DNA of 64,000 nt from a virus. Both the position numbers and the translations under genes were made by a program. The notes beneath the pieces were generated by a model. It was not told where the DNA came from. It saw only the letters and a program-made list of their open reading frames with translations, and did not search any database. Every line of letters starts with the position of its first letter. Positions within the stretch are counted from its first letter, which is position 1. The stretch spans positions 1-64,000 of IMG/VR virus record IMGVR_UViG_3300048838_000628; one strand, given 5' to 3'. Below, piece by piece: positions 44,601 through 63,980 of this stretch.

Positions 44601-47600
44601 AAGGCTTCTCGTTATTGTCTTTGTTGGCATTCCAAATTGGTTATCTGTTAAACCGCCAGATTGTGCGAAAGCGTATTCTTCTTCTGGAGTGCCAAGATTT
44701 ATTTCACGTTCACCAAAACCAAACTGATTAAGACCGCTACTAAGCAAAGTCTGTAAAGCGCCAACAGGAACAAGAAGTGCTGTTCTAAAAGCTTCTTTCC
44801 AGTCTTTGTTTTTAATGTCGTCAATTAGTTCACTAATACGTCTTGTAAAAGGATTTTCTGTTATTTCTATTCCAAGAGTCGTTAGAACCGATTTAAAGTT
44901 CTCTTTAAGGTTTCCAACAGCTATTGCTAGTTCATCAGAACCTTGCTTTGTTTCGCCACTAAATAGTAGACCAATAGCTTTCCTGGAATCAGCGAAGTCT
45001 TTGTTTAGCCCGCGCAAGTCGTTTCTTAAATCTGTTATTTGGTCAACTGTAAGATTCTTACCAAACACTTTAGCTGCACCAGCGAATCTTTTTGTCGTCT
45101 TTTCACTATCGGTCATTTGGTCTTCAAGGCGCTTCATTTCTTCATATTGATCTTGGAGCATATCGGAAACATCTTCGCCTTCAGAATTATATTTAGACCA
45201 AATCTTTATTGTATCACCGTAGTGATATACGCTATCTTTAGTAAGACCGTTCCACTCTCTTAGCTGGTCTACAGAAACACCATAACGCTGTGCAATTCCC
45301 CAAAGACTATCGCCTTGAGCAAGAACAAGTTCTTGATACATGCCAAGCGCAGGATCGTATAACGTCTTTAGTCTGTCAAGCTCTGGATTTGTTTTTCTTG
45401 GCCCGCTTTCACCAGCAGCGCCGCCAGTTGGCCCGCTACCAAAAGTATTATCTATTAACGCTTTTAGTTCATCAATTGGTGTTCTAATTAAACGGATAGA
45501 TTCAACAAAACCGCTTAAGAAAACATTTACTCTTTGTATGGCATTACCGATTGCATCTGCAAGAAACTTAACCAATGGAGCAAATATATTGCCAATTGTT
45601 ATTTTAAGATCATACATACGGTTCTTAAGTCTCTGAATAGAAGCGTCCGTAGTTTCATTACGGATACGTGCCTCATTCATAAGAGCATTATTTTCACGCC
45701 AACCATCGTTACCGACTTCAACGGCTTTATTAACCAACTCGTTAGCGTTACCAAGACGACGCAACATGTCAGAAACACGAATACCGTCTAAGCCAAGCTG
45801 ATCGAACAAAACAACCTGTTCCTCAAGAGGGTATTTAGAAAAGCCCTCAAGCATATCCAAAAGAAACTCCGCCGGTTTTTGTTTCTGCAACTCTTTTAAT
45901 TCAGCACCAGTCATTCCGGCAGCTTTAGCAAATAACTCAAGTTCTGTTCCACCTTTAGCTAAAGCGTTAATGCTTTTCTGCATAAACTGGCTAAAAGCTG
46001 TACCGGCTGCTTCAGGGTTAAGACCGACCGATTCCATAGCAGCAGAGAACGAAAGAATCTCCGGCACAGAAAGACCGAACGAGACACCGACACCGGCAAT
46101 GCGATTTGACATTTCAGCAATACCGCTTTCAGTAGCGGCAAACTGATTGCCAAGCGTAACCATTGTACTGGCAACTTTATCAAAATCTTTACTTCCAGTA
46201 ATGGCCGAAAACTGTCCAAGGAACGTAGCTGCTTCTTCGCCACCAAGATTAGTGGCAATTGTCATAGCACCGACGGTTTGAGTAAACTTTTCCATCAATT
46301 CAATAGGTATACCAAGCGTACCAGCAACTTCAGCGATCTCAAGAATAGTTTTTGAAGCATCTGATAGACCAGATAAAACACTATCATTGCCAGTCGCCAT
46401 ATCTCTAAATTGTTGTGTTAATGTGGCCTGTACTTCTTTTTTAGTTTCTTCTGGTATTTCAATTGTTTTGAAAACCTGCGCTAAACCTTTTTCAAATTCA
46501 ATTGCCGTTCCAGCAAAAACAGAGCCTAGTCCACCAACAAACATTCTAAGATCATTTATTGCAAAACGTAAGCGATTGCTTATTTGTTTAAATATACCGC
46601 CTATTGCATCACCGGCTTTTCTAAAAGGGAAAGTTATAATATTGGCGATATTAGAGAAAATTGATTTAGTAGTGTTTACAACACCTTTAAATGCGTTTAT
46701 AACTGTTTTTGCTAAAAACTCTACAACAGCCTTGATTTTACTAAAACCAGATTTCAAGCCTTCAACAATATTTTCACCAAAGCGCTTAAAAACGGCACTA
46801 GGGGAGCGAATTCCCCATGAGAATTTGGCACCACGATTTACTTCGTTACCAAAATCTTTACCAAGGTTAAAGCCTGCACGTTTATCAAATCCGCCAGCTT
46901 TCATGCCTTTGGATAATTGCTTAACAGAATTAGCAAAACCTTTAAAGTTTATATCTTTCATATTAACGCCAGATAACTTTTCTAGCGTTTTTGCAATAGC
47001 AAGGATTGATTCAGAGAAAGAGCGAAATTTATCTACTGTATTTTTATTAACGCTGCCAATATCTTTCATAATAGCTTTAAAGCCACCAAAAGGTAGTAAG
47101 GGTATGCCATTAAGCATTCTGCGTATAGTTCCAAGACTTTTTATAACAGTTTCTACGCTAACGCCTTCATCAATACGAGCAAGAACGCGAAATACCTTGC
47201 CTATATTTACGACAGCTTCAGCAAAACTTGAAAACTTTTTAATGTCATCTGATTTAAAACCAGATATACTCTTAACAATGCCCTTGAAGCCGCCAATGTT
47301 GAACAAACCTGTAGCACTAAGCATTCTGCGTATTTTGTTTAAGTTTTCAACAATATTTTCTGTGCTTAAATCTCTTGAGTCCACAGAAAGCGATCTAAAG
47401 GCTTTGATAATACCAAGCATACCCTCTGTAAATCCACGTACCTTTTCTACTTGCTGAATAGATACGCCACCTTCGTTTTTCTTAAATATATTAAAACTAA
47501 AGCTTTTAAAGCCGTCTAGTTTTTTAAACAGTTTCGACATACTTTCAAGCATATAAAGCGATTCAACCAAAAAAGAGTTTAACTGTTTAGAAGCATTTTG

Positions 47601-48788
47601 TATATTTAGCTTTTCAACACTTTCGATTACCTCAATAGTGTTTTTAAAGAACTTTAATACTACACCAAACTTATCAAGTACAAACTCAATTTGATTAACA
47701 TTTTGTATTTTAATATTTCCGATTTTAATAAACACAACTTCTATATCATCAAACACGGCAGCAAATGATTTGAATATAGCCTTATCACCACCAAAGTTAG
47801 TGTTTTCAAGAGCAGAAGTAATTTTATCAACGGTCTTAAATAAGCGAACTAAATAGTTAAGGTTTTTTGTTGTATTTTTATCAATAACGATTCTTGCAGC
47901 AGCCGCAGCAAAAAGAGTTGATTGTATAAGAACTTGTCTAAGGTCATAGATATATTTATCTGCAAGTAATTGCTTTATTTTAACTCCATAAAGCGCGTGT
48001 GAATCGGCGTATGCTTTAACAACCTTTAATGTTCTATCTATCATTTTTAGAATATTGTTTAACGGTTTTGTACCGTCATCTTTTGCAGCAGTTGTAACAT
48101 TGCCGATTATAAATTCAACTTTATTAGATATACTTATAATTACATCAGTAAACTTTTTTAACGAAATCTCAAAATCTTCTGATTTTCCAACTTCGTCTAT
48201 CTTCTTTTTCATTCTTTGAATTGCCGAAACCATTGTATAAATAGGCGTAAGAACTTCTTTATCAAAAGCAACAACTTTTGCAACCCTATCGGCTGTAGGA
48301 AAGTTAATTCTATTAAACGCTGTAACAAATTCTTTGAAAGTATTTACGGCACGTACGCCGCCCTCTATTGCGTTTTGAGCAGTTGTTAAACCGCTAAACT
48401 TTTCAATTAAATTTATAAACGCGTACATGCTGCCAGTTATACTGGTGAGCGCTTGAGAAGTTTTGTTGCTATCAGCACCAGCTGAAAGCATTTGCTTTAC
48501 AAATGTATTAACAGAGCCACCCATTATTTCAAACTTCTTGTTAACACCCGCCATGCTTGGCAAGTTCTTTATTGTTAACGAGAAGCTAAGTATTTCCATT
48601 CCAAAAGCTTTCATTGCCGCTATTTCAAGACTTTTATTATCAAAAACTTTTAATAGCGCTCTAATGCCATCAGCAGTATTGGTTAGTTTTGATTTTAAAT
48701 CACCCTGAAGTTGTGAGAATTCATAAAGTGCATCGTTTAACTTACCAAAAGCTTCAACATCAAATTCTAATCCAGCACCAGTGGCCAT
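41676..48788 (-). CDS. Tape measure protein (TP901-type core) with internal LysM domain
   Basis: 2370 aa, helical; LGNQFAATES...RIAG and EAAGTAFS core motifs; GDSLWGIAQRYGVSVDQLREWNGL. Confidence 0.92.
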   Translation of the reverse strand: MATGAGLEFDVEAFGKLNDALYEFSQLQGDLKSKLTNTADGIRALLKVFDNKSLEIAAMKAFGMEILSFSLTIKNLPSMAGVNKKFEIMGGSVNTFVKQMLSAGADSNKTSQALTSITGSMYAFINLIEKFSGLTTAQNAIEGGVRAVNTFKEFVTAFNRINFPTADRVAKVVAFDKEVLTPIYTMVSAIQRMKKKIDEVGKSEDFEISLKKFTDVIISISNKVEFIIGNVTTAAKDDGTKPLNNILKMIDRTLKVVKAYADSHALYGVKIKQLLADKYIYDLRQVLIQSTLFAAAAARIVIDKNTTKNLNYLVRLFKTVDKITSALENTNFGGDKAIFKSFAAVFDDIEVVFIKIGNIKIQNVNQIEFVLDKFGVVLKFFKNTIEVIESVEKLNIQNASKQLNSFLVESLYMLESMSKLFKKLDGFKSFSFNIFKKNEGGVSIQQVEKVRGFTEGMLGIIKAFRSLSVDSRDLSTENIVENLNKIRRMLSATGLFNIGGFKGIVKSISGFKSDDIKKFSSFAEAVVNIGKVFRVLARIDEGVSVETVIKSLGTIRRMLNGIPLLPFGGFKAIMKDIGSVNKNTVDKFRSFSESILAIAKTLEKLSGVNMKDINFKGFANSVKQLSKGMKAGGFDKRAGFNLGKDFGNEVNRGAKFSWGIRSPSAVFKRFGENIVEGLKSGFSKIKAVVEFLAKTVINAFKGVVNTTKSIFSNIANIITFPFRKAGDAIGGIFKQISNRLRFAINDLRMFVGGLGSVFAGTAIEFEKGLAQVFKTIEIPEETKKEVQATLTQQFRDMATGNDSVLSGLSDASKTILEIAEVAGTLGIPIELMEKFTQTVGAMTIATNLGGEEAATFLGQFSAITGSKDFDKVASTMVTLGNQFAATESGIAEMSNRIAGVGVSFGLSVPEILSFSAAMESVGLNPEAAGTAFSQFMQKSINALAKGGTELELFAKAAGMTGAELKELQKQKPAEFLLDMLEGFSKYPLEEQVVLFDQLGLDGIRVSDMLRRLGNANELVNKAVEVGNDGWRENNALMNEARIRNETTDASIQRLKNRMYDLKITIGNIFAPLVKFLADAIGNAIQRVNVFLSGFVESIRLIRTPIDELKALIDNTFGSGPTGGAAGESGPRKTNPELDRLKTLYDPALGMYQELVLAQGDSLWGIAQRYGVSVDQLREWNGLTKDSVYHYGDTIKIWSKYNSEGEDVSDMLQDQYEEMKRLEDQMTDSEKTTKRFAGAAKVFGKNLTVDQITDLRNDLRGLNKDFADSRKAIGLLFSGETKQGSDELAIAVGNLKENFKSVLTTLGIEITENPFTRRISELIDDIKNKDWKEAFRTALLVPVGALQTLLSSGLNQFGFGEREINLGTPEEEYAFAQSGGLTDNQFGMPTKTITRSLFGFNEELEKRIKEIGKPENMSESIDLAILNIRRVLTDIANGDYTEAKTFLETNVDNFVRSGITAGLALVFGFPFGAIAFVSNMLAMAIENDVFNLRTELEKTEIGNEIVKAVGYIGEQINLALAAVGEIMNPDKNAANGLKAGVGIMENDSIMPSSAKSGSNPFVSYFNALIEDVKDIIDEINRIDFTSITTFVSGILKFINDIVAGAALLVGSVALLELKTFILPLIENIGKTFNVLTEEFTSDDINSLLKIGAVFIAFMNRIKVASMVMTVARFAGLQLLIGGIAEALPSLLTATSGAFGVIEGLIEGDKDKVQANADKALEGIWDALQAFFGSIANSTFNVMEAIGLGPASVFRIQAENSLRGIIAIIDTIITRIKIAALDLQIFNELDPNKERPFQLERDKLIGGLAFGEQFKFSTLELDSTFGFTNSFGKLVATSFRDALSNPENYTLSAEAKERLRYAAINTLLTSGDADSANDAFNVFRMLGIDPETQFTTEQLANLPFLKNMPTNLKEALLRNVALGELGLDQENISGFLTIEGVTGLIDSFIKGAVAQDTGLSETTKADLQTRVVDDLATLNESDALVNQLMATEEFAGFNMLSILASGNLRPLEQSEINGVVAELQSSMGPIYDLLGPQAGADLYTSIINGLLHNQEDAISDEDAKSIARGFISSLYDPENQYTRALSNDYLNGILEGLELGLITSENTTRLQNVGKGIGQYLDEGTKNALGIKSPSTVYETVGENIIEGLQKGIDDNVSDLKKSVDKVVGELETISVMTAIMANKVTIALSQIILNLVVFSSTFTIATTILKLNLIVARSELDLFIDKIEDAILSLARMKVAFLNSNVGLGPGEGIQPTDGTSFYGGGVRAGGKYEVLENGLPFETYRTSKGKTYLISNENGQIYSPAGRTREINAAAGVGMSSMNINEGDTYITVNGAGSPEAVAEAVVKKMEKRKARETFRTLKLSGASGV

Positions 48789-49475
48789 TTATCCTCCAAG
48801 CATATCGTTAATAATAGCTGGCGTAAACTTAAGATCAGCGTCACCAAGCTTTTGTTTAATTTCGTTTCTAAATTTAGCATCTTTAAGCTCAGTGAAAATT
48901 GTGTCATAAAGCCCGCGTCCAAACCAGCCGCCCATTTTCTTGCCTTTTGGATAAATAAACCACTCACGTAATTTTGATTTGCGTTTGCCCCAAAGATGAA
49001 AACGCTTACCGCTAGTTCTTGCTGAACTTTCAGGCCAATCTTCGTTCTTTGGAAATGCAGCAGGCTTCTTGGAAATCGCTTCAGGATAACCTTGATTGTT
49101 TTGTGTAAAACTAGAAGCGACTTTATGACCATTTGGAAATGTCGTATAACCCAAGGTGACCCTACCTTTACGGCCAGCGCTTATATAATGAAAAATCTTA
49201 TGAGGCTGACCACTACTATTTACTGCACTAATTTGTACATTATAGATTGACTTGCCTTTTTTAAAGTCAAACGAAGATTTGACATAAACCTGAAAACGCA
49301 CGGCTTCATCACCAAAGCGACCATCTTCATTTAAATATCCAGCAAGCTCATTAAGTTTGTCTTTAAACACTTTTGCTATTTCGCCTTCTTTGCGCTTAGC
49401 AAGACCTTCGGCATATTTATCTGGTTTAAATCCTTTAACAAAATCTATAACGTCACCTAAATCTACTGTTGTCAT
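48789..49475 (-). CDS. Basic tail-completion/neck-like protein
   Basis: Position in the operon; highly basic. Confidence 0.5.
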   Translation of the reverse strand: MTTVDLGDVIDFVKGFKPDKYAEGLAKRKEGEIAKVFKDKLNELAGYLNEDGRFGDEAVRFQVYVKSSFDFKKGKSIYNVQISAVNSSGQPHKIFHYISAGRKGRVTLGYTTFPNGHKVASSFTQNNQGYPEAISKKPAAFPKNEDWPESSARTSGKRFHLWGKRKSKLREWFIYPKGKKMGGWFGRGLYDTIFTELKDAKFRNEIKQKLGDADLKFTPAIINDMLGG

Positions 49476-49870
49476 TTGTTTCCCTTCCTTGCACTTTCAA
49501 CCTCGCGGTAAAAATCTTCAATAGACTCAATTTGATTTTTTACTATCTCAACTGCCATTGTTTTACCACGAAGTTCGGGTTCGTAATCATTCCAAATATG
49601 GGGAGGGATATTTAGTTTCGATCTTATAAATTCTTCTTGTATTTCAAACGGTATTTGCTGGATGTTGATGCGACCATATAGCTTTTTCTTTAACTCTCTG
49701 ATCGCATCTTTACCAGCTTGGTCTAAATCTTCTTTTTCGCCGTCTAAACGTTTGTTTAACTTCTCATTTTCTTCGTATAATGTTTCTTCTGTCGAAAGGA
49801 GAGTGTTCTTGCTATAATAATTAAGATAGAAGTTCATCCAGTCGATCACGGAGAAAGGAGATGTCATCAA
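49472..49870 (-). CDS. Tail assembly chaperone, second (T-like) ORF
   Basis: Overlaps the 3' end of the upstream chaperone in the +1 frame; NIPPHIW..Y.P pattern. Confidence 0.6.
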   Translation of the reverse strand: MMTSPFSVIDWMNFYLNYYSKNTLLSTEETLYEENEKLNKRLDGEKEDLDQAGKDAIRELKKKLYGRINIQQIPFEIQEEFIRSKLNIPPHIWNDYEPELRGKTMAVEIVKNQIESIEDFYREVESARKGNK

Positions 49871-50600
49871 GACCCTCCTGCGAGTTCAAGATGCTAATGC
49901 CCGTGTACACGCGCTTAACCGCATCCTGAAACACATCGCTAATGGGCTTGTACTCATTAACGATCTGTGAGGCAACTGCAATCATTACCTCAAACGGGTT
50001 GTTCTTGTCAATCAGTGGGGCAGGGGGCATGTATTCGTCAAGTAGTTCGTCCAGAGGATCGCGCTCTACTTTTGCACCGTCCCAATAACTTTCAGGAATT
50101 ACCACATCAAACTTGCTCTCAATAGATTTGTTCTTATGGATTGTAAATACGCTCTTACGCATAATTGCCCATGAGATAACCTGAAATAGAGCCAGTGTAT
50201 AATGCGGTGTATGCTCTCGCTTAACTGATTGAATAAATGTAGAAATTTTGCTCTGTGGCACGTTACGGAAAGCACGACGATATTTCTTAACAAGATCGCG
50301 AACATCATTATCGTTTTCGTCAATTGCTTCCGGGTCTTTAATACCGCGAGTAATTAGAAGTGTACGAGTGCGCTTCATAATTTCTTCAGCAGTTTTGTCG
50401 TTAAAGCCCAGTGTTAGAACGCGCATAGGATCGACAACAACGTTTTCTTTGTCGTAATAAGCGCCATCTTTTTCAGTAAGGACTTCGCCAGTATCGACGT
50501 TAATATGCCAGTTAAAGTAAACCTCATATTCGTCAAATACTTCGTTAATTTCTTCTTCTGTAAGTTCCTTACGCTTGTCTTTCGTACTGATAATAGCCAT
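49821..50600 (-). CDS. Tail assembly chaperone (G-like)
   Basis: Directly follows the tail tube gene and its terminator; acidic. Confidence 0.6.
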   Translation of the reverse strand: MAIISTKDKRKELTEEEINEVFDEYEVYFNWHINVDTGEVLTEKDGAYYDKENVVVDPMRVLTLGFNDKTAEEIMKRTRTLLITRGIKDPEAIDENDNDVRDLVKKYRRAFRNVPQSKISTFIQSVKREHTPHYTLALFQVISWAIMRKSVFTIHKNKSIESKFDVVIPESYWDGAKVERDPLDELLDEYMPPAPLIDKNNPFEVMIAVASQIVNEYKPISDVFQDAVKRVYTGISILNSQEGLDDISFLRDRLDELLS

Positions 50601-50663: not shown

Positions 50664-52172
50664 CTAGCAACCGCCACCAATGCAAAGATTGCAAGTAGCG
50701 ATCTGAACAAGATTGCCGTCAGCCGTGACAGCAAGGAAGTAGTTCACACCTTCGTCAAGCAAGGGCGAACCCGCAACGATCTGATTAATAACACCAGCGC
50801 CAGCAAACGGCGAAACTGTCTGCCAGTTCTGATTGGTCAGAGCTTCACGTTTGCGCAGAGCCGCACCAGCACCAGCCAGAACGCGATAACCGAATTCGTC
50901 ACCAGCCAGAGCGCCAATAACAACATTGCTGGCAGCAATAGCGATCTTAGTGTAGCTTGAAGCAAGATTGTCGGCAGTGTAGTTTTCGTAGATGTGACCA
51001 TCTGCGCCACCAAAAACAACGTGACCCGAACCAAGGATCGTGACCGAAGTCAAGTCCGTAGCAGCCGTGCCACCAACCTGTGTGCTAATGTCGGTAAACG
51101 TAACACCGTCATAAGCATAAGCAGTAGCGCTTGAAAGAGCAAGGTACATCAGACCAGTACGCGAGTCATAAGCTGCGTCCAGAATGTCTTCAGTGTCAAT
51201 ATCAGTCAAAGCCGTGAAGGTCACGCCGTTATCGCACGAATAGAAAACTTCACCAGCCGTACCGAGAGCGTAAACCTTGCTGAACGCTTCGATAACCTTG
51301 TTGACGCCGGTTGAAGCTGCACTCAAAGTTGAGAGAGCGAAAGCCGCACCACCAACCGAGTAAGCAACACCACCATCGGTACCCGTGCCGCCAACAACGT
51401 CAGTATAACCAACCACATAGTTACCGTTAACATAGGCAGCTGAAGAAATATCGGCAGCAACCAAATCGCCAGTAATCGCAGTTGTCGTAATAGCAGTAAA
51501 ACTAGCGCCACCATCAGTCGAAAGCAGAGCATCGGCGCCTTCGCCAGCAATAAAGATCGTCTGGTACGCGCAGTCCACGCTCTCGCAACGCTCGTTAACA
51601 AGCACAACCGTATTAAGACCAGCATCGTGGTCAAACATCAGCTTGTTCTCAAGGCCGTAATAGTGACGCAGGTTACCAACGATAGCCAGAGTACGCATTG
51701 ACGTAATCGGATTTTCGTTGTCGTCATAGCCAACAATCGCAGCGTTGTACTGACGCACTCCCATGTTGAAGTCTTCGCCTAGCCAGAAGTAGCTATCACA
51801 GCCATCATCGCAGCTTGACGGGACAAAAAGAATATCGTACCGTGCGCCAGCATACTGCGCCTGATAGATACGATCCGTAACCGAAATCATCTTATTCGGA
51901 AGCATCATGTTCACGGTCAAGCCCTTAACCTTGTCACCGGTCAGAGTACGCTCAACGAGAACATTACGACCATTCAGATGACGGTACTCAGGAAGAATCT
52001 TGCGTTCCGTGAGATTATAGCTGAAAGCTTCGTCCACACGATGACCGCCAAGATAAACCAAATCAACCGGATTATCTTTACGGGCCGCATACATCTTCAT
52101 CGTACCAGAGTCAAGCAACGCACCGGTTGCCTGCTCGTCCTGCTCGCCCCCGCTAAAATAAACAATAGGCAT
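50664..52172 (-). CDS. Major tail tube protein with C-terminal Asp-box/beta-propeller domain
   Basis: Position, GC-richer codon usage like the capsid gene, downstream terminator; LSTDGGASF and SCDNGVTF Asp-boxes. Confidence 0.65.
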   Translation of the reverse strand: MPIVYFSGGEQDEQATGALLDSGTMKMYAARKDNPVDLVYLGGHRVDEAFSYNLTERKILPEYRHLNGRNVLVERTLTGDKVKGLTVNMMLPNKMISVTDRIYQAQYAGARYDILFVPSSCDDGCDSYFWLGEDFNMGVRQYNAAIVGYDDNENPITSMRTLAIVGNLRHYYGLENKLMFDHDAGLNTVVLVNERCESVDCAYQTIFIAGEGADALLSTDGGASFTAITTTAITGDLVAADISSAAYVNGNYVVGYTDVVGGTGTDGGVAYSVGGAAFALSTLSAASTGVNKVIEAFSKVYALGTAGEVFYSCDNGVTFTALTDIDTEDILDAAYDSRTGLMYLALSSATAYAYDGVTFTDISTQVGGTAATDLTSVTILGSGHVVFGGADGHIYENYTADNLASSYTKIAIAASNVVIGALAGDEFGYRVLAGAGAALRKREALTNQNWQTVSPFAGAGVINQIVAGSPLLDEGVNYFLAVTADGNLVQIATCNLCIGGGC

Positions 52173-52177
52173 TTTTC

Positions 52178-52399
52178 TTACTCCTTAAGCAAACGTTTGG
52201 GTAACTCAAATTCTTTTGGAAAGTCGGGGAAGTTCTCTAGAATAAGGTTTGCGGGAATCCAAAACTTAGTCTTTCCATCCGTCACCCGTACTTGATTACC
52301 TCTAATTCCAGTCAAACGTGAAAGCTTTACTGTTTGAGGAACCGGAGGGGCTTTCTTTACTTCTACCATTACTTCTTCTTTTACTTCGATTTCGTCCAC
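52178..52399 (-). CDS. Hypothetical protein
   Basis: GTG start; fills the gap between genes. Confidence 0.55.
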   Translation of the reverse strand: MDEIEVKEEVMVEVKKAPPVPQTVKLSRLTGIRGNQVRVTDGKTKFWIPANLILENFPDFPKEFELPKRLLKE

Positions 52400-53671
52400 T
52401 TAGAGACTACTCCCTTCAACATTGTAGCACTTATACTGGGACATTTCGCGCAAAGCCATAGTTATACCCTGATAAGGAGGATAACCAGACAATAGTGCGA
52501 TTGTTTGAGGCGTTAACAATTCTTTATATTCACTACCATAACTCTTACCGCTACTGCTGGCCTCTAATACGGCAATACGTGGGACTTCACGATAGTATTT
52601 AATCTTTTGCTCTGCACATTGATCGCAGTCACACCATGCACGCACACAGTCAGCTAGTCCGATAGCAAGTTTAGATAAGATTTGTGAAACACCATACTGT
52701 ACGTCGCCGCTGTAAAGCGGTTTAATACCACTAAGATAATTCACCGCAACCTCTTTTGGAGTGCATTGCAAACAATATCTTTGCATTACTCCGTTGTCAT
52801 CACACATAGAGGTTTTTGGCACTAACCACGTTTCTTGACCAATTGTACGTCTTTGAAAACAAACAGGAACAGCTAATTCGTCACAATTGCCGCCATAACA
52901 ATCCGTACCATTACAAACAAAATAACCTTGTTCACATTCGTCAACATAAGTATAAAAAGCTAGAACTTCATCAACATATGTTTCTTCAGCATGTGGCAAA
53001 CAAGTCTCTTGTTCATCAAGAGAAGGCTTTTTAAGTAAATAGGCGGGAATAGTAACTGTGCAAGTATCGCCATTAATAACAATACCGCGCAAAGGACGAA
53101 TTTCGTATTCTCGATCTGCAAATGTAGGATCAACAATATAGTTTGCATCAGCAGATGTGAAATAAAGCTTAATGCGGCTCTTATCCATACCTACCGGTAC
53201 AGTGAACGTTACAGTGAAATTTTGCTGTAAAGCGCCACTGACAACAGGTTTAACTACTTCTGCTAAACCGAGATACATTAACCCGATTTTTCCTGTTTCT
53301 TGAAAACCACAAGAATTTTGCAATCTTACTGCAACATATTCTCCTGATTTTAGACGCATTCGATTCAAATTGTTCGTTAAACGATATTGAATTCTCTCGT
53401 TTTCCACTTGTTCTGTAGATGGGTGTAAATTTGTTTCCCAATAAAACACCTGCTCTGCGTAAGTTAACATTCCGATTAAATCATCACGCGACCAATGAGA
53501 TGCCTGAACCCAAGGTCGCTGTAACATACAAAAGCATTTTTCTGTTTTTTGGTTTGGATAGTTAAACACACTATCGCCAGAAAGATCAATTCCAGCAGCA
53601 TAGAAAGGCTCAATGCCAAAAAACTCTACAAATTGCAACAAAGGCATTAGAGTATTACTTCTCATCTGCAA
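52400..53671 (-). CDS. Cys-rich head-tail adaptor-like protein
   Basis: Position; L..AE...ET adaptor-like helix and VAVNYLSG; 18 Cys in 423 aa. Confidence 0.55.
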   Translation of the reverse strand: MQMRSNTLMPLLQFVEFFGIEPFYAAGIDLSGDSVFNYPNQKTEKCFCMLQRPWVQASHWSRDDLIGMLTYAEQVFYWETNLHPSTEQVENERIQYRLTNNLNRMRLKSGEYVAVRLQNSCGFQETGKIGLMYLGLAEVVKPVVSGALQQNFTVTFTVPVGMDKSRIKLYFTSADANYIVDPTFADREYEIRPLRGIVINGDTCTVTIPAYLLKKPSLDEQETCLPHAEETYVDEVLAFYTYVDECEQGYFVCNGTDCYGGNCDELAVPVCFQRRTIGQETWLVPKTSMCDDNGVMQRYCLQCTPKEVAVNYLSGIKPLYSGDVQYGVSQILSKLAIGLADCVRAWCDCDQCAEQKIKYYREVPRIAVLEASSSGKSYGSEYKELLTPQTIALLSGYPPYQGITMALREMSQYKCYNVEGSSL

Positions 53672-54074
53672 GCCTCCCTATAAAAATAGTTGCTGTACTA
53701 CACGCTAAAATAAGCATAGCAATAATGAAAACCGGATTTAACGCTACTAGAATGACATTCAGCGTGCCTACCCAAACAGACATACACCAGATACAAGAAA
53801 ATAATTCAGCAAAATGATTAGTATAAATCTTATCTAAACCTGTAGAGTCCATTCCTAGCTCAATGGCTTCTTTAAGCGTTAGGCGTTTTTCAATTATTTG
53901 TTCACCATCGTGTTTTTCATAATAAACATAACGAACGCCAAAGATATGACGAATAATCGTAAAAATATGCAAAAAGCCAATTTCGTCAATAAATAGACTG
54001 CTTAAGCGCCAAGTTGCTAGAAATAAAACTATAACAACAACTGGATTAAGCAACCACAATAAGGTCTCCGGCAT
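53655..54074 (-). CDS. DUF1360-like membrane protein with CxxC
   Basis: LATWRLSSLF..E.G...F..IR and ELFSCIWCMSVWVG; about 3 TM helices. Confidence 0.75.
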   Translation of the reverse strand: MPETLLWLLNPVVVIVLFLATWRLSSLFIDEIGFLHIFTIIRHIFGVRYVYYEKHDGEQIIEKRLTLKEAIELGMDSTGLDKIYTNHFAELFSCIWCMSVWVGTLNVILVALNPVFIIAMLILACSTATIFIGRLADEK

Positions 54075-54237
54075 TTGCGTCTTCCTTCATCACGTAGAAT
54101 TGCTGAAGCGGTTTTCTGTACCCATAAACCGTTTTGCTAGTCTGGCCTTGGTAATATCCCGCTTGATCGCCAACATACCGCACAAGGGTGTATTCATCCA
54201 TGATATTAACTTTTGGCTTCTCTTTACATTTACACAT
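54046..54237 (-). CDS. Small protein with N-terminal CxC
   Basis: MCKCKEKPK; RBS GAGGA. Confidence 0.7.
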   Translation of the reverse strand: MCKCKEKPKVNIMDEYTLVRYVGDQAGYYQGQTSKTVYGYRKPLQQFYVMKEDANAGDLIVVA

Positions 54238-54239
54238 GG

Positions 54240-54623
54240 CTATTCCTCTTTCTTCTTGCGCCGCGTTTTCTTAACTGGTTCTTCTGTTTCTTCTTCTTGT
54301 TCAACTACTTGTGCTTCAACTTCATAACTCATGTCTTCGTCTTGAGATACTTGTACAAGAACATCAAGAACGGCTTCCGGCTCTACAACCGGCTCTTGTA
54401 CCTGATAGATGCTGAAAAGAGAGAAGTTCTTAACTTTACGAGTTAAAAGAAAATCTACATCTTGCGGATGTACTTGCTGAATTTGCTTGTTCTTGTTATC
54501 AAAAACGTACATGTTCCGCATAGGAGACACAAACGTAACCTGTTTACTACCGTTATAGATTAACTGAATTCCATCTTCGTAAACCATTGTTGTATTAACC
54601 TTTTTAATTTTTCCGCAACACAT
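54240..54623 (-). CDS. Small protein with N-terminal CC, related to the adjacent CxC protein
   Basis: MCCGKIKK; L.Y.G...Y...V...DV versus L..Y.G...Y...V...DA; acidic then basic tail. Confidence 0.7.
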   Translation of the reverse strand: MCCGKIKKVNTTMVYEDGIQLIYNGSKQVTFVSPMRNMYVFDNKNKQIQQVHPQDVDFLLTRKVKNFSLFSIYQVQEPVVEPEAVLDVLVQVSQDEDMSYEVEAQVVEQEEETEEPVKKTRRKKKEE

Positions 54624-54624
54624 T

Positions 54625-55677
54625 TTACACCATACCTAGTAATAAATCACCATACACTCTGCCAATAGCTTGATGTGCGCGAGTGTTAAAATGTACCTGA
54701 TCTATCATGTACTCTGTAGCCCAATCAGGATTTGCTAAGAAAACGCCTCTAGCGTCTAGTAGAGCAACGCCCTCAACTACTGCAATATCCTCTATTTCAT
54801 CGCTGTAAGCCTCTACAGCGCTATTTGCTGGCTCATCGGTACGTGGGGGCACATTCATCAATATCGGCGTCACAGAGGCCGTTTCTAGGGCATTTATGAT
54901 ACTTATAACGTTAGCCCTAAAGGTCGGCATTGCAGTTCCACCAGCAGCGTCGTTTGTACCCGTTTCAATCATACAGAAAGTTGGCTTTGGTGAATGACCA
55001 GTAATGTTACCGACACGTGCAAGCACTTGACCTGCGTTATTTCCACCTTCGCCATCAATTACCGGAATAACATAATGACGCAAGTCTCCGTACACCTTTG
55101 CAATTGCTGTAGATGTAAACGAGAGACTGTTATCGTCAAGTTCTGCTGAAGATGTGCCTATCCAGATTAACTGGCTATCGCCTAAAGCGCCTATGGCGTA
55201 TTCCGCCGTTGCCAAAGAGTTAATCTTCTGGATTACCACATCTTTGAAAGTACGTACTTCTGTAGAATTATCTGCTATTCCTGTAACACGAAATTCAACA
55301 CGCCAGTTAGTATCTGTAGCGGTTTTGAAATTTAATTTGTAGTTTCTGTGTATTGCCGAAGTGTCATAAATCTCTGGCATGTAGCGGATTAAGCCACTAT
55401 CAGCCTCTTTAACACCAAACTGGCAAAAACGGTTTAAATCACCTTTGGCACGAAAACGTAATTGGTAATAAGTATTTTGCTCTAACGTAATGTCCTGATA
55501 CACTCTAGCGTAACCTGCGGCATCGCCGCCTGCTGCACGAGTTAGTGTAATTTTAGTACCATCGTCTTCTTCAAATGATCCAGAGATACCGCTAAGAGCA
55601 GATATTTCTGTTTCCCAAGTGCTTAATTCAATTGAGCTACCGAAGTAGCTCGGTAGGGTTAAAATTCCATTAGGAAT
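54625..55677 (-). CDS. CBM-like domain + SGNH/GDSL hydrolase (start unresolved)
   Basis: ALGDS, GGN, GTND, D.VHF; the frame is open upstream of the track start (55503) to 55689 with no ATG. Confidence 0.75.
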   Translation of the reverse strand: MPNGILTLPSYFGSSIELSTWETEISALSGISGSFEEDDGTKITLTRAAGGDAAGYARVYQDITLEQNTYYQLRFRAKGDLNRFCQFGVKEADSGLIRYMPEIYDTSAIHRNYKLNFKTATDTNWRVEFRVTGIADNSTEVRTFKDVVIQKINSLATAEYAIGALGDSQLIWIGTSSAELDDNSLSFTSTAIAKVYGDLRHYVIPVIDGEGGNNAGQVLARVGNITGHSPKPTFCMIETGTNDAAGGTAMPTFRANVISIINALETASVTPILMNVPPRTDEPANSAVEAYSDEIEDIAVVEGVALLDARGVFLANPDWATEYMIDQVHFNTRAHQAIGRVYGDLLLGMV

Positions 55678-58987: not shown

Positions 58988-60670
58988 TTACGCAGCTTCG
59001 TCGTAGGTGACGATAGTAACAGTCGCGGTATCGCTACCGGCTGCATTGGTAATGGTGTAAACATAGGTGTCAACACCCTCAAAGGTTGCGCTCGGAGGCA
59101 CATACGTGAACCCGCCATCAACAGTAATAGTAATCGTACCGCCTTCGGTCGTAGCAACAGTTGTAACTGCCGTAGCTGCCGGAGCAGGAGTACCAGTGTC
59201 GTTTACCAACAGACCGCTACCAGCGGCAACAACTAGCGAACTAGCACCAACTTCACGGGTGTAGAAGTCATTGTTCGCAACAGGAGCAACCTGAGTTACG
59301 AACCCACTAGCCTTCGGGTAACTAACCAAGTTACCTTCAAAGAAGAATGTACTCAAAGGATCACCAGACTTTGCACCATAGATGCTATCGCAAGCAACAT
59401 CGATAATTTTCATTTGTGCCCAAGGACCGGGCATGTCAACGCGCCACTGAAGTTCAGTGTGGATGCGATAGCAAGTGTGGTCAAGCGTCTTCCACGACAG
59501 AATGCGCGAATTATCGCTAACCATGTACTCGCTACCAGCCGGAGGAGTAGCCGCAACAGCCGACATATCCTTAACCTGAATACGAACCAGCGGCGTATTA
59601 CCGACATTGGGCGTCAGGATCAGAATAGTAGCAAGAGCAGGGTCCCCAGGTTCCGCACCAGCCGACAACAGACCGTAGTCGTAGGGGAAGAACACAACCG
59701 GAACGCCATGGAACGTCAAGGTAACATTCTGACCGGCCATAAGCGTGTTCTTAAGCTGATTCAGCATAGCCTGAACTTCACTTTCCATCATCCACTCTTT
59801 GTTGCCGCCGCAATGCGTGTGGCAAACCCAAGCGTCAATCAGACAGTTGAGATGTTCAGTCGGGATAAGGCCAATGTGTGTCGGCATACCGGACAGCGAA
59901 GAATGGGCAATACGCTGGCGGGTCAAGCGAAGGAACGAGGCCACATAGTCATAGAAAGCATAGCCGTCAGTAACAGCATCGCCATTAAACGTAACACCAG
60001 TAGCGCCATTCTCAGGAGCAAAGCTGTTGCCATTATAGTCAATAACCGTGCTGTCCATAGACGTACAGGCTTCACCGGTTTCGGGATCAGTGTAGCCATA
60101 AGTCACTAGCTGAAGCAGACCATCGGCCTCGCCAGCGTTCGATTTATTGCCGTTGATAATAAATCTCTGAAGGTCTTGCAGCATAACAGTCGTCTGACGA
60201 ACCACGTCCCACTCATAGTCGTCATCGATCATATTCCCGCCGATGTCATAAATCGGGCGCTGTGACGAATAACGAATAGGCAGGTCGGTAATGTCACGCG
60301 TGTCTGATGACTTGCGCATACGGCCCCAACCCTCTAGCAGATACGAACAGCCACCAGACTCAACACCAGTACCCGGAGCGCACGCATCAGCATGAGCGCT
60401 AGAAACAGGTGAACCATCGGCAGTACCAGCAGGTGCAACATAAGTCAGGAAATTACGCTTAATCAAATGAACATTGCTGTTCACAAAACCAATAGCATCA
60501 AGAGCGCGATTGTAGCCACCCAAAAGGGTGAAAGAAACAATAGCGTCTTCCGAATCGAGATCAAACAACGGCTGGTTATACAAACCATCAACCGGCCCAA
60601 TCGACAGCGCTTCCGTACCAGAATCACGCTTGATGAAATTACCGCCCTTTGAATTACGTTTCTGCATCAT
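58988..60670 (-). CDS. Major capsid protein with C-terminal Ig-like (Big_9/cadherin-like) domain
   Basis: Follows the protease/scaffold gene; IING....EADGL motif; PVANNDFYT...LLVNDT...DGGFTY.P...G.DTY.YTI...TATVTI. Confidence 0.8.
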   Translation of the reverse strand: MMQKRNSKGGNFIKRDSGTEALSIGPVDGLYNQPLFDLDSEDAIVSFTLLGGYNRALDAIGFVNSNVHLIKRNFLTYVAPAGTADGSPVSSAHADACAPGTGVESGGCSYLLEGWGRMRKSSDTRDITDLPIRYSSQRPIYDIGGNMIDDDYEWDVVRQTTVMLQDLQRFIINGNKSNAGEADGLLQLVTYGYTDPETGEACTSMDSTVIDYNGNSFAPENGATGVTFNGDAVTDGYAFYDYVASFLRLTRQRIAHSSLSGMPTHIGLIPTEHLNCLIDAWVCHTHCGGNKEWMMESEVQAMLNQLKNTLMAGQNVTLTFHGVPVVFFPYDYGLLSAGAEPGDPALATILILTPNVGNTPLVRIQVKDMSAVAATPPAGSEYMVSDNSRILSWKTLDHTCYRIHTELQWRVDMPGPWAQMKIIDVACDSIYGAKSGDPLSTFFFEGNLVSYPKASGFVTQVAPVANNDFYTREVGASSLVVAAGSGLLVNDTGTPAPAATAVTTVATTEGGTITITVDGGFTYVPPSATFEGVDTYVYTITNAAGSDTATVTIVTYDEAA

Positions 60671-60678: not shown

Positions 60679-61986
60679 TTAACCCTTTGTCACTTTAATT
60701 TTTTCACGATTAGCGCGGGCACGTTCACGCGGGGACATTTCTTCTTCGTCCTTAGTTTCAGCTTCCGGCTCAGTAAACTGTTTGTAAACAACTTTAACAT
60801 TACGATTACGAACCGCAGTTGACAAGCTTAGTGTCGCTTCCTGAATCTTTTCATTGTCCTCGCGTTCAACAGAAGCAAGACGCTCTGTTAGTTCATCAAT
60901 ACGCGCACGAGCAGTTTCAAGTTCAGCAACCAATTCACTACTGTCAAAAACGGGGACAGTGATCTTTTCAGCAACCTTGATAGCAATTGCGTCGATAATT
61001 TCTTCAGTAATCTCAAGCTCTACTTCTTCGGGAGCTTCTTCTTCGACAACCGGTTCTTCGACCACAACTTCAGGCTCAGGTTCAGGATCACCGTCGCGTG
61101 TAATCATTTTTTCATCTTCAATCTTTCGGCTGCGCACATTGGCGTCATCCAAAAGCGATTCAACTTCGTCTTCGGCTTCTGTGCCGAGAAATTCGAGCAA
61201 GGCTTTCTTTGCCCGATCACGGTCATAACCCATGTTTCCACTCCTTAAACTAGAAATAGTAGTAAAGTAGCTCGCCGCAGCATTTTCTTTGAGCAAAGAA
61301 CACTCAATTAAGATACCGCGATTGAACGTACTGATTTCGGTGTTACCAATTCGGATCACTTCAGGTTCTTCTGTAATCCTAAATCCAATGCTTATGCCCC
61401 AAACACCATCACTATTATCGCCCAACTTTTCAGCAATTCGAGAGCCAATAGTGGTAGTTTCGTCAACAAGACCGGAGATAATGAGAAACTTCTCATATCT
61501 GAATACTTTTTCCACAGTGCCAAAGCGCACCGCTTCACCGAGATGATAAAAGGTTAGATATGCTTTATCTTCTTGATCTTCGTAGGCTTCTTCAAACGAA
61601 TCAAATAAAGCCGTTGTGTCAAGCTCAGCAACTCGATTCAAAACAGCCGCAGCCGCAATTCCATAAAAATATAGTTGACCATCAGCATTTCTACGAACGA
61701 ATGTACGAGAACGCTCAGCGGGTACTTCTACATACTCAATTGCAACTTCAGTGGGTTCGCTAAGAGTAACAGAGTCATTAGCGTAATCAACACCTAAACG
61801 GTATAGCTTCCCATTGTCAGTTACAACAATGTAGTCGCCTTGTTCTGAACGCATGTATTCTAAAAGATAAGGATAATCAAACCCCGAAGAAGTTTCTAGT
61901 GCCTCATAAATCTGAGTAAAAAACTGGTCGTTTGTCAACTCCCTGTTAACACCCAAAAGGCTTTTAAAAACATTTTTTAAGCCCAT
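60679..61986 (-). CDS. Prohead protease fused to a scaffold region
   Basis: LTFYH, WGISIGF, ECSLL...AA; acidic coiled-coil C-terminal half. Confidence 0.75.
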   Translation of the reverse strand: MGLKNVFKSLLGVNRELTNDQFFTQIYEALETSSGFDYPYLLEYMRSEQGDYIVVTDNGKLYRLGVDYANDSVTLSEPTEVAIEYVEVPAERSRTFVRRNADGQLYFYGIAAAAVLNRVAELDTTALFDSFEEAYEDQEDKAYLTFYHLGEAVRFGTVEKVFRYEKFLIISGLVDETTTIGSRIAEKLGDNSDGVWGISIGFRITEEPEVIRIGNTEISTFNRGILIECSLLKENAAASYFTTISSLRSGNMGYDRDRAKKALLEFLGTEAEDEVESLLDDANVRSRKIEDEKMITRDGDPEPEPEVVVEEPVVEEEAPEEVELEITEEIIDAIAIKVAEKITVPVFDSSELVAELETARARIDELTERLASVEREDNEKIQEATLSLSTAVRNRNVKVVYKQFTEPEAETKDEEEMSPRERARANREKIKVTKG

Positions 61987-61998: not shown

Positions 61999-62580
61999 TT
62001 AACACTCATAAGTACAGCCGTGGTTATTTATCCACGCCTCTAAATAATCCGAACCAAAAGTTTGTTCTATCCATAGCATAGGCGGTTTGGCATTTTTTGT
62101 TAAATTGCATTTAGCACATGTCAAAGCAATATTAGAAGAATTATTATTGCCGCCTTTAGCCAGCGGTATAATATGATCTATATGGTATTTATCCTCAATA
62201 GAGCAATAACAATAAAAACATAAGCCGTTTTGTGCCTTAAATTTCTCTAAAATATCTGAATCAGCAAAAGTCCCCTCAGCATTTCGTAGCCTGGCTCTAC
62301 GCTTTGCTCGACTTATTTTTTGACTGAGTTTAAATTTGGAACGATTTTTGCTTCTATATTCGCTAATCTTGTTTTTGTAATATTTTAGATTATCATAATA
62401 TTTTTTTGATTGTTTTTGTCTAATCTTAGACTTATTTGCTTCAACATATTTTTTATTCATTTGGTTCTTACATTTTTTACAACAATTCTCAAAACATCCA
62501 CCATATCTTTTTCTCCACTGAAAAAATTCTTCAGTTAATGGAAGTTCCTCGTTACATTTTGGACAAATCTTCATGTCCAC
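61999..62580 (-). CDS. HNH endonuclease with N-terminal Zn finger
   Basis: CPKC...CKKC; CFYC...HIDHIIPLAKGG.N...N....C..CN..K. Confidence 0.9.
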   Translation of the reverse strand: MDMKICPKCNEELPLTEEFFQWRKRYGGCFENCCKKCKNQMNKKYVEANKSKIRQKQSKKYYDNLKYYKNKISEYRSKNRSKFKLSQKISRAKRRARLRNAEGTFADSDILEKFKAQNGLCFYCYCSIEDKYHIDHIIPLAKGGNNNSSNIALTCAKCNLTKNAKPPMLWIEQTFGSDYLEAWINNHGCTYEC

Positions 62581-63980
62581 TAGTACGCTCTTTTCCTTAG
62601 CATTTCATCGCCATTTTTATATAATACTTCTACATTGCCATTTGGAAACTCGTATTCATATAATTTATCTGGCGCGTCATAATTACCGATAATCTCGCGT
62701 TTTGAATTATATGAATAGGTTATGATCGGTTCATCAGGATAGGTTTTAGCAAAGCGACGAATCTCAAAGTTATCTCTGGCACGCTGGCGAACATGCTGAA
62801 GGTCTGTGACCGTTAGACTTTTATCTTCAATTCCAGCAATCCAGTCACGAGGCAAAATACCACTTTTGGCAAGAAGATAACGTCCTTCTTGTGCATCAAT
62901 CAATTCGCTATCTTTCATAGACTTAATATTCGCAATGACAAGAGCGTTGATTTCTTCTTGTGCTAAGGTATCATCATCGTTACGCATGTTAAAATCGAAT
63001 AATACGCTCGGCGGCAAGAAATAAGATTGTATTTGATCTTGAAAACTTAATGCAAATTCTAATTCACCCATATAAGTCGTGTTTTTTCGCATAGCGTCGA
63101 TTTCACGACCGCGCCCAAAAGTTCCCGATTCCGGCGTCCAAAACTGATAAATGTTTGTACCAAATGCTAAAGAATACGCTTTCATAATATTATCCAGCCA
63201 ATCGCGCAAATTGAAGTTATCAGGAAGTTCAGATAAGCCAATTAAATCTAATTTTGCATTAGGGTCTTTAACAAACAACCCAAAAACACCATCATATGTT
63301 GCCGTATCTTGGTTTTCTTTTTCTTGCTGAAAATTAGCTACTGCTGAATCCCATTCTTGGCGTCCTACCCCTGTTGCAAAAAGAATTCCTTTTGGCGGGG
63401 CTACTCCTAGCTTTTCAAGCTGATGATAGTGCAGACCTATCATCAAACGGGTAAACAACAGCGCTCTTTCAATTGCGCAAAAGCCAGCGTAATTTAGCTT
63501 TTCTTGAACAGCAGGCATCGAATTTCCGTGAATATAAGTTTCCCGACGGAGTTTCTTTTTGCCTGTCGCTGGATAATAATACATTGGATAATCACGCGCA
63601 CCTGTCATACGCAGACGCGAGGGATCAACATGCCACATGGTATCCGAAACCTTATTCCCGTCAACTCCAATTTCGGAGACATAACCTAAATTCGAAGAAT
63701 ACCAAGCTGTAGAATTTAGGGACAAGAATTGCCGCCAACCTTCGTTGTTATGGACAGTATGAAGCTTTTTAGCAAAATTACTTACTAAACGTGCCCCACC
63801 AGTTAATGTCCAGGCCCTATTCTTGTCCCTTGCTACTGACGCCGCTAATACACTGGCTATTAAGCTCTCTGATCTCCAGAAATGTTGTAGCGCTTCGTCA
63901 CGCTTCCGCGTATCGGCTTCATAAGGTGGTAAGACCTGATCCGATCTAGTAACCATGTTAATAATACGACGAAACATCAT
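62580..63980 (-). CDS. Portal protein (frame open to the window end; possibly 5'-truncated)
   Basis: Position before the protease; VDPSRLR, PKGIL and AFG motifs; size fits a portal. Confidence 0.75.
   Translation of the reverse strand: MMFRRIINMVTRSDQVLPPYEADTRKRDEALQHFWRSESLIASVLAASVARDKNRAWTLTGGARLVSNFAKKLHTVHNNEGWRQFLSLNSTAWYSSNLGYVSEIGVDGNKVSDTMWHVDPSRLRMTGARDYPMYYYPATGKKKLRRETYIHGNSMPAVQEKLNYAGFCAIERALLFTRLMIGLHYHQLEKLGVAPPKGILFATGVGRQEWDSAVANFQQEKENQDTATYDGVFGLFVKDPNAKLDLIGLSELPDNFNLRDWLDNIMKAYSLAFGTNIYQFWTPESGTFGRGREIDAMRKNTTYMGELEFALSFQDQIQSYFLPPSVLFDFNMRNDDDTLAQEEINALVIANIKSMKDSELIDAQEGRYLLAKSGILPRDWIAGIEDKSLTVTDLQHVRQRARDNFEIRRFAKTYPDEPIITYSYNSKREIIGNYDAPDKLYEYEFPNGNVEVLYKNGDEMLRKRAY

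Follow-up and report, generated by a model that had tools for sequence, protein, structure and literature searches.

A DUF1360 membrane protein with an invariant CxxC in phage virion-assembly blocks, a candidate factor for virion disulfide formation

In this study, we propose a small membrane protein of the family DUF1360 as a candidate phage enzyme for the formation of disulfide bonds in virion proteins. The proposal is plausible and can be tested, but it is unproven and its support is circumstantial. The protein is encoded in the late gene block (minus strand, 63980 down to about 32400) of an uncultured phage. The analysed stretch of 64,000 nucleotides (nt), here called the window, comprises positions 1-64,000 of the IMG/VR virus record IMGVR_UViG_3300048838_000628 (82,023 bases, direct terminal repeats). 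Cryo-electron microscopy of the years 2024-2026 revealed some particles of tailed phages in which hundreds to thousands of disulfides act as covalent staples, and these particles are nonetheless built in the reducing cytoplasm. DUF1360 is a known family of unknown function, merely listed by name and given no function in the literature searched, and the window protein is a further member. New are the strict pairing of DUF1360 with a virus-only family of about 415 amino acids (aa) in dozens of uncultured phages, a CxxC that appears invariant throughout the family and is predicted to lie on the cytoplasmic side, and a probable link of DUF1360 to a lineage of disulfide-stapled actinophages.

The 139-aa window protein passes the Pfam threshold for DUF1360 (PF07098; 27.9 bits against a cut-off of 21, E 2.3e-6), with a match that spans profile positions 48-98 of 102 and thus only the second half of the model. 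It was also recovered by a six-frame search of the record (24.5 bits) and matches phrog_781, a PHROG family of unknown function. The original prediction of a small, DUF1360-like membrane protein with a CxxC at the start of a transmembrane helix was borne out by these matches and by the relatives of the protein. Every residue of the family motif is present, namely W22 and R23 of the Trp-Arg that ends the first hydrophobic segment, and C94, C97, S99 and W101 of the C-x-[WY]-C-x-S-x-W that starts the second. In eight close homologues (34-63% identity) the string LFSCIWCMSVW is identical letter for letter. A profile search of 1.84 billion cluster representatives gave 1,785 DUF1360 proteins at E<=0.001, and 149 sequences among the matches listed were combined with the eight close homologues. 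All 157 of these relatives carry the CxxC, mostly as C-x-[W/Y]-C-x-S-x-W; the Trp-Arg pair is found in 142, and no further Cys in 81. The CxxC is likewise present in 66 of 66 DUF1360 open reading frames (ORFs; E<1e-10) on related viral contigs and in all 13 actinophage copies that were read. Within a 64-sequence alignment of the phage lineage, Arg23, Glu31, Cys94 and Cys97 are the sole invariant columns.

The protein consists of three hydrophobic segments with the CxxC at the start of the second. The invariant Arg stands at the end of helix 1, the invariant Glu follows just after it, and the CxxC lies level with the Arg. The orientation was deduced from a heuristic charge count, not from a topology program: over 143 members the mean number of Lys and Arg residues is 0.10 in the N-terminus, 5.15 in loop 1 (between segments 1 and 2), 0.22 in loop 2 (the turn joining segments 2 and 3) and 1.15 at the C-terminal end. 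By the positive-inside rule, these counts suggest an outer N-terminus, an inner C-terminus, and a CxxC and Arg at the cytoplasmic interface. The CxxC thus probably faces the cytoplasm, where virions assemble. In the window clade the cytoplasmic loop contains an insert of about 30 residues. Since the invariant residues are an Arg, a Glu and two Cys on one predicted membrane face, chemistry seems a better explanation for their conservation than mere anchoring.

As the single most likely role, which we hold with confidence clearly short of even, we propose that DUF1360 is a redox-active thiol-disulfide factor that would promote disulfides in virion proteins late in infection. It could oxidise virion proteins directly at the membrane or, alternatively, act on a thiol carrier in the cytoplasm (thioredoxin, for example, or a thiol of low molecular weight), and the electrons would pass from DUF1360 to a membrane acceptor such as quinone; acceptor, substrate and activity are all what we infer. 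A wider claim would make DUF1360 a new class of cytoplasmic-face membrane thiol oxidase and the missing phage machinery for virion disulfides in at least two unrelated lineages, possibly also in cellular processes by which cross-linked shells arise within the cell. This version is possible, with a probability well under one half.

The placement of the gene was examined in IMG/VR. Labels such as portal, protease, capsid, tube, Dit and adaptor are taken from gene order alone, because no Pfam or PHROG match names these proteins; the names proposed earlier for the window proteins fit by position and found no backing in a family match. Directly downstream of DUF1360 lies a Cys-rich ORF of 423 aa at the adaptor or neck position, whose ninth codon is the more likely start; the protein would then have 415 aa, in agreement with the database gene call P0010. 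A pattern scan with the DUF1360 alignment revealed seven distant loci, all with the order DUF1360, a protein of about 405-440 aa, one of about 99 aa, one of about 500 aa, two small proteins and a Cys-free tape measure. A second scan with the 415-aa family gave 79 distinct loci, in which DUF1360 ORFs were sought by a hidden Markov model (HMM) built from the 157 sequences. DUF1360 was detected upstream on the same strand in 63 of the 79. The two genes are separated by -19 to +23 nt in 27 loci and by one small ORF in 18 (284-710 nt), and the gaps in another 18 are one of 49 nt and 17 of 953-7,707 nt. Eight of the 16 loci without DUF1360 have less than 700 nt of upstream sequence. A whole-record search of five others found the gene elsewhere in two, the remaining three records being 62-85% complete; no clean DUF1360-free relative was found in these five records. 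A metagenome scan for close relatives yielded one locus of 3.6 kb (L094 in our numbering of fetched loci and genomes). In this uncultured lineage, DUF1360 is a fixed gene of the virion-assembly block and is usually coupled to the Cys-rich 415-aa gene.

A scan of genome contigs with DUF1360 confirmed nothing. With the 415-aa family, eight contigs of a genome collection were matched, in bins of mixed taxonomy, two of them Chloroflexota. These contigs (L086-L093, 45-82 kb) carry the phage module in bins assigned to Tepidiformaceae, Dehalococcoidia, Methanothrix, Nitrosotalea, Ignavibacteriae, Flavobacteriaceae and Gammaproteobacteria. Most likely these are phage contigs that were assigned to the wrong bins, and for this reason and because the bins are mixed no host is called from them.

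Among isolated phages, a tblastn search with the DUF1360 protein of a relative led to one isolate, Microbacterium phage Zooman, whose gene 66 was confirmed as a family member (HMM E 6e-20, Pfam 42.6 bits). Gene 66 used as query then matched 221 actinophage records, including 103 of Mycobacterium and 97 of Gordonia phages. We inspected eight annotated actinophages, Zooman, Halfpint, Evaa, Sting, Ribeye, Jabberwocky, prophiT49-1 and Forza (L095, L099, L100, L103, L104, L105, L109, L110). In all eight, DUF1360 lies directly upstream of the portal gene, even where the terminase is 15 kb away. In five of the eight, the annotation distinguishes 'major capsid hexamer' from 'pentamer' proteins or shows the matching gene pair; Forza is annotated with a hexamer protein, and Jabberwocky and Zooman are without such a label. 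In Halfpint and Evaa, the DUF1360 'membrane protein' is the first gene of the rightward late operon.

The connection to disulfide-stapled particles is made through Jabs, a phage of Mycobacterium abscessus. The main text of a bioRxiv preprint of 2026 describes for Jabs about 1,700 disulfides and a T=9 capsid in which hexons and pentons are made of different proteins. The residues given there are C271, C281, C347 and C563 of the hexon protein MCPh, C97 of the penton protein MCPp, C93 of the terminator, and C19, C60, C79 and C131 of the 352-aa tail tube protein. Cys at these very numbers occur in prophiT49-1, a prophage of M. abscessus: at 19, 60, 79 and 131 of its tail protein, which has 352 aa, at 271, 281, 347 and 563 of the capsid protein, at 97 of a penton-type protein and at 93 of the protein in the terminator position. 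The link between Jabs and the prophage consists of identical Cys numbering and protein length, not of an alignment. Gene 51 of prophiT49-1, directly before the portal gene, belongs to DUF1360 (31.9 bits).

Of 11 phages with this type of major tail protein, 10 retain the Cys quartet of the tail tube, namely prophiT49-1, Halfpint, Evaa, Sting, Ribeye, Jabberwocky, StAugustine, Tomlarah, Phinky and PiperSansNom; in MellowYellow two of the four remain. A DUF1360-type gene is present in all 11. Pfam missed it in two of five cases, Phinky and MellowYellow, where a DNA pattern for CxWCxxxW hit once each, with no control hits, in ORFs of 114 and 103 aa that show several hydrophobic stretches and the family motifs. 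L5, TM4, Che8, Cjw1 and Giles are mycobacteriophages whose capsids and tails are of other types, and none of their five whole records matched PF07098; their capsid proteins hold 1, 0, 0, 0 and 0 Cys and their tail-tube proteins 0, 1, 3, 0 and 1. The Jabs-type tail protein and the tube-like protein of the window lineage gave an hhalign probability of 0.08%, and since they are not detectably related, the two DUF1360 lineages look independent at the level of the tube.

In the window lineage, the tube-like family of about 500 aa was analysed for Cys pairs in a matrix of 67 sequences (median 19% identity to the window protein), where six Cys columns are 81-97% conserved. Cys at columns 103 and 123 are found jointly in 13 sequences, and in no sequence is one present without the other. 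On the tree, each column changes 9 times, and in 7 of 7 independent pairs the changes have the same direction (p 0.016). Columns 302 and 381, with Cys in 35 and 34 sequences, change 13 times each, in about 8.8 of 9 independent pairs in the same direction (p 0.004). Among the control pairs listed, 103/302, 123/381, 302/559, 381/559 and 559/703, none showed a link. Repeated joint gain and loss of two Cys is the usual evolutionary mark of a disulfide, and at the level of the family these pairs appear to behave as disulfide partners would. The parity of the Cys counts (42 even, 25 odd) was left aside as evidence, given that these sequences share ancestry. As a further feature, the 502-aa tube-like protein of the window and its homologue in the relative L006 (11831-13324) contain a repeated, Asp-box-like S/T-x-D-x-G-x-T-F/W in the C-terminal 300 residues or so, with weak BNR/YCF48 Pfam matches in the L006 protein. 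These repeats suggest a beta-propeller decoration on the tail tube.

Several results weigh against a role of DUF1360 in disulfide formation. The original prediction had placed the protein near VKOR or DsbB, and this kinship found no support in Pfam, in PDB sequences or among Atlas neighbours. For the 139-aa protein, Pfam gave DUF1360 as the sole match at E<=0.01 and nothing of DsbB, VKOR, Erv or a thioredoxin fold, and the DUF1360 profile gave no relative among PDB sequences at E<=10. Among ten structural neighbours in the ESM Atlas, only a viral DUF1360 cluster exceeded a TM score of 0.5, and the model was poor (pLDDT 0.64). DUF1360 comprises three helices with a single Cys pair, and a cofactor motif was not recognised in it. 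The expected contrast between Cys-rich shell proteins and a Cys-free tape measure also lost its value, as tape measures contain 0-1 Cys in six of six actinophages, whether DUF1360 is present or not. Late genes of the window as a whole are not Cys-rich (0.84% Cys, or 1.09% without the tape measure, versus 0.98% in plus-strand genes), and the enrichment is confined to four proteins (4.3, 2.0, 1.6 and 1.4%). This structural Cys content is lower than that of Milano, which has 2.1% in its structural proteins. The 502-aa protein itself has Cys at 121, 125, 196, 201, 313, 494, 497 and 502; it lacks the pair 103/123 and, at 19% identity, has a Cys aligned to column 302 alone. The predicted association of DUF1360 with virion Cys content runs in the expected direction and was not refuted, but it comes down to about two independent lineages, since all DUF1360-bearing actinophages examined share capsid and tail types. 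Three DUF1360 tblastn queries against 50,697 phage records matched actinophages only, in a search that is insensitive for short proteins, and the disulfide-rich virions of Agrobacterium phages, Bacteroides phages and coliphages known from the literature accordingly seem to manage without DUF1360, provided that these phages are among the records searched.

A simple alternative may be spontaneous oxidation at lysis. The Jabs authors call it 'an open question' whether the bonds form spontaneously or are catalysed by a host or phage oxidoreductase, and they favour a late, possibly spontaneous oxidation at or after lysis. A paper on NBD2 gp39 (Protein Science, 2026) lists Qbeta, Milano, PD491P1 and tails of the tail-tube protein-3 family as disulfide-linked virions. 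It reports that gp39, and gp13 with Cys engineered at matching positions, form the bonds, and states that well-placed cysteines are able to oxidise spontaneously in oxygen. In these two texts, phage disulfide machinery is described as not known or the question as open, and the Milano paper contains no passage on bond formation. No protein for phage-encoded disulfide formation was proposed in the literature searched.

The Cys-rich neighbour of DUF1360 deserves separate consideration. The 415-aa protein belongs to a virus-only family (BLASTP E 4e-8 to the homologue of L005), and in the window clade 14 Cys and His227 are invariant in seq­uences of seven members down to 38% identity. A Cys triad (C46, C347 and C349 of the window protein) is present in 92-95% of 73 members, but is lost together in four sequences. 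A block of 3-5 Cys (C258, C263 and C271 in the window) is an insertion that is absent as a unit in 13 of the 73; its columns 364, 375 and 383 change six times each on the tree, together in 4 of 4 independent pairs (p 0.125), and no other Cys pair test in this family was significant. In some members (L004) the block reads CxxC-x4-CxxC, in the window clade C-x4-C-x4-C-x7-C, and Cys counts in the family are often odd. Cys sets that are lost in threes to fives and show such spacing would suit a zinc or other metal site at least as well as disulfides. Metal binding by this protein, which the original prediction had itself named as the alternative, may thus apply, and some virion Cys clusters, above all those of the 415-aa protein, may bind metal instead of forming disulfides. 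In L038 and L052 the 415-aa protein is Cys-depleted (1 and 3 Cys) and DUF1360 still abuts it, so that DUF1360 is not tied to the cysteines of this neighbour; the tube-like proteins of both loci keep Cys.

These features lead to another explanation, that DUF1360 is a membrane-anchored helper of portal-vertex or neck assembly whose CxxC binds zinc or an Fe-S cluster, perhaps across a dimer, or hands on metal to the Cys clusters of the neck protein beside it, with any disulfides forming spontaneously when lysis exposes the virions to air. Comparable cases are lambda gpL, which carries an Fe-S cluster, and the small membrane proteins MerT and MerF, whose Cys pairs face the cytoplasm and transfer metal. 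The fixed neighbour of DUF1360 is a portal or neck-position gene in both lineages, which agrees with such a helper, as do the block and triad lost as units, the often odd Cys counts of the 415-aa family, the opinion of the Jabs authors and the NBD2 results. However, most DUF1360 members have two Cys, too few for a metal site without dimerisation, and no conserved His stands beside the CxxC. In addition, DUF1360 is retained where its neighbour has lost the Cys clusters, and the hydrophobic middle residues of the CxxC are nearer to the redox motifs of DsbB and VKOR than to zinc knuckles. On balance we regard the assembly helper as possible, with a probability well under one half.

Attempts to place the 415-aa family by similarity gave little. 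No Pfam or PHROG match was obtained, with a Pfam family common to at most 2 of the 62 members scanned (best E 0.022), and an Atlas search gave no usable match. The profile search of PDB matched ETV6 fusion constructs through a short motif, taken as chance, and at E=1 a chain labelled 'adaptor/neck protein'; neither match is significant. A portal was also dismissed, as hhalign to actinophage portals gave 0.2% and a 466-aa ORF heads the late-strand ORFs. The 'head-to-tail adaptor' of cluster-B-type actinophages (about 250 aa) has 8-9 Cys (3.1-3.6%) at conserved positions and parallels the Cys-rich window protein at the adaptor position; an hhalign probability of 10% over 18 columns to the 9-Cys adaptors was not counted as homology. 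Most 415-aa members outside the window clade, for example L006 10298-11542, contain the stretch SDxDGDGxDE, similar to a calcium-binding loop of the DxDxDG type, which the window clade is without.

It has also to be considered that the membrane role of DUF1360 has nothing to do with virion Cys. The protein could act in lysis timing, superinfection exclusion or the anchoring of late transcripts or assembly, with a structural CxxC and the Cys-bearing company as an inherited coincidence. The family occurs in cellular genomes as well, with a Bacillus subtilis protein above the cut-off, which we take to be the sporulation protein YjcA. In cluster-B-type phages the structural operon also includes a holin and further membrane proteins, Cys are few in Ribeye and Jabberwocky beyond the tail tube, and the small number of lineages behind the association fits a coincidence. 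However, accessory exclusion or lysis genes are seldom fixed in position across relatives next to a neighbour at 18-20% identity, and the invariant Arg, Glu and two Cys on one predicted membrane face speak for chemistry more than for an anchor. We therefore consider it unlikely.

The original prediction went further than a single oxidase and assumed a full relay, in which DUF1360 would oxidise two related mini-proteins, starting with MCKCK (63 aa) and MCCGK (127 aa), as soluble shuttles to virion proteins. A likeness between the two was not detected (no BLASTP alignment at E<=100), and they have in common only the N-terminal Cys and Lys. The sole homologue of the 63-aa protein among the fetched loci (L094) has no N-terminal Cys and no start codon farther upstream. 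Four homologues of the 127-aa protein (53-63% identity) also begin with M(S)CCGK, which would favour a relay, but this says little because the four are close relatives (87% mean column identity). Homologues of either protein were not found in the other fetched loci. Proteins with a MACGCxK start, whose N-terminal Cys pair and basic residues echo the window mini-proteins, are encoded within 600 nt upstream of DUF1360 at L017 and L035, and this is the case for only 2 of 55 distinct DUF1360 genes, so that mini-proteins are not general partners of DUF1360. The annotated actinophage tables show no such partner beside it either. The relay appears very improbable, and the mini-proteins are at most clade-specific accessories. 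In the 127-aa protein, an extended acidic stretch precedes a conserved basic tail, EEPVKKTRRKKK, and the distribution of charge recalls scaffolding or DNA-contacting proteins. For the thiol oxidase as such, the shuttles and the VKOR/DsbB kinship have dropped out of the original argument, while CxxC invariance, the predicted cytoplasmic face, the placement among morphogenesis genes and the Jabs-type lineage continue to speak for it.

The features of the window and the Cys-rich adaptors of actinophages are collected in Table 1. A script count reproduced all ORFs and Cys counts reported before; the 13-Cys ORF next to the portal-position gene had been overlooked in the earlier inventory of the late block. 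It encodes a homologue of HNH/endonuclease VII, probably a homing endonuclease, and separates the gene at the portal position from the head gene that follows. Apart from this homologue, the SGNH hydrolase, a BNR_4 protein, the Ig-like domain of the capsid-like protein and DUF1360, no late protein had a Pfam or PHROG match. The capsid-like protein has a weak BLASTP match to a 470-aa ORF of L006.

Table 1. Features of the late gene block in the window, and Cys-rich adaptors of actinophages
Feature	Position	Strand	Basis or remark
DUF1360-family membrane protein, 139 aa	53655-54074	-	Cys 94, 97, 125; ELFSCIWCMSVW present
Cys-rich protein at adaptor/neck position, 423 aa, 18 Cys	52400-53671	-	ORF and Cys count
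63-aa protein, start MCKCK, 29-nt overlap with DUF1360 start	54046-54237	-	ORF
127-aa protein, start MCCGK, acidic stretch and basic C-terminal tail	54240-54623	-	ORF
73-aa Cys-free protein between 415-aa gene and tube-like gene	52178-52399	-	ORF; relatives have a gene of about 99 aa there
Tube-like protein, 502 aa, 8 Cys (CDDGC, CESVDC, terminal CNLCIGGGC)	50664-52172	-	Cys count
Cys-free ORFs (0 Cys)	49821-50600; 49472-49870; 48789-49475	-	Cys count
Tape measure protein, 2370 aa, 0 Cys	41676-48788	-	Cys count
Dit-like protein, 400 aa, 8 Cys, six inside residues 90-106	40474-41676	-	No Pfam/PHROG match
Capsid-like protein, 560 aa, 8 Cys, C-terminal Ig-like domain	58988-60670	-	Big_9 37.5 bits, residues 462-553
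Portal-position ORF, 466 aa, 1 Cys	62580-63980	-	Heads late-strand ORFs in window
ORF with 1 Cys	60679-61986	-	Cys count
HNH/endonuclease VII homologue, 193 aa, 13 Cys	61999-62580	-	phrog_1035, E 1.1e-28
SGNH/GDSL hydrolase	54625-55503	-	Lipase_GDSL_2 64.4 bits
Cys-rich actinophage adaptors	L099 17546-18304; L100 16832-17593; L103 24966-25736; L109 24560-25303

In the window, the slot just upstream of DUF1360 is occupied by the BNR_4 protein, the SGNH hydrolase and the two mini-genes. Several relatives have there a triple glycosyltransferase of about 1,000 aa (GT4, two GT2, helix-hairpin-helix) and sugar-modifying genes. An example is L006 3481-9978, with a DegT-type aminotransferase and the glycosyltransferase; similar ORFs of about 1,000 aa are found in L003, L004, L005, L007 and L008. 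This slot is an insertion hot spot for carbohydrate-active genes, and it may point to virion glycosylation.

DUF1360 offers a concrete knock-out target, fixed as it is in the assembly operon of the prophiT49-1 lineage and also in uncultured phages that are unrelated to this lineage and have Cys in their shell proteins. Should oxidase activity be demonstrated, a new enzyme class would be defined, a function would be assigned to PF07098, and the protein might be of use for disulfide formation in the bacterial cytoplasm. Otherwise, its strict association with genes for portal or neck would still indicate that head-tail assembly includes a membrane step so far overlooked.

Known routes of disulfide formation resemble the one proposed here in part. 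DsbB and VKOR likewise have, where a helix begins and beside a conserved Arg, a CxxC whose middle residues are hydrophobic. Unlike in these enzymes, the CxxC of DUF1360 is predicted to be cytoplasmic and not periplasmic or luminal; the four helices and two essential periplasmic-side Cys pairs of DsbB, and the four-helix bundle with a loop Cys pair of VKOR, stand against three helices and one Cys pair, with no match to the VKOR family in Pfam or among the Atlas neighbours. Poxvirus E10R-A2.5L-G4L and the Erv oxidases of large DNA viruses are virus-encoded disulfide routes in the reducing cytoplasm, as is proposed for DUF1360. They employ enzymes dependent on flavin adenine dinucleotide (FAD) and thioredoxin-like partners, whereas Pfam detected neither an FAD-binding domain of the Erv/ALR type among the 20 window proteins scanned nor such partners, and DUF1360 shows no flavin motif.

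The window phage, known from genes alone, can further be compared with the virions of Jabs, Milano, PD491P1 and NBD2 gp39. Like in these, Cys are concentrated in shell, tube, connector and Dit-like proteins, the tape measure is Cys-poor, and the tube-like family has co-varying Cys pairs. The closest counterpart of the window protein is the 'membrane protein' of actinophages (Halfpint gp9, Sting gp39, prophiT49-1 gp51, Zooman gp66), which belongs to the same family by HMM. The downstream partner differs, being in the window the 415-aa protein at the neck or adaptor position, with no recognisable portal (hhalign 0.2%). Common to both are the three-segment layout, the Arg...CxWCxSxW signature and the placement in a late morphogenesis operon.

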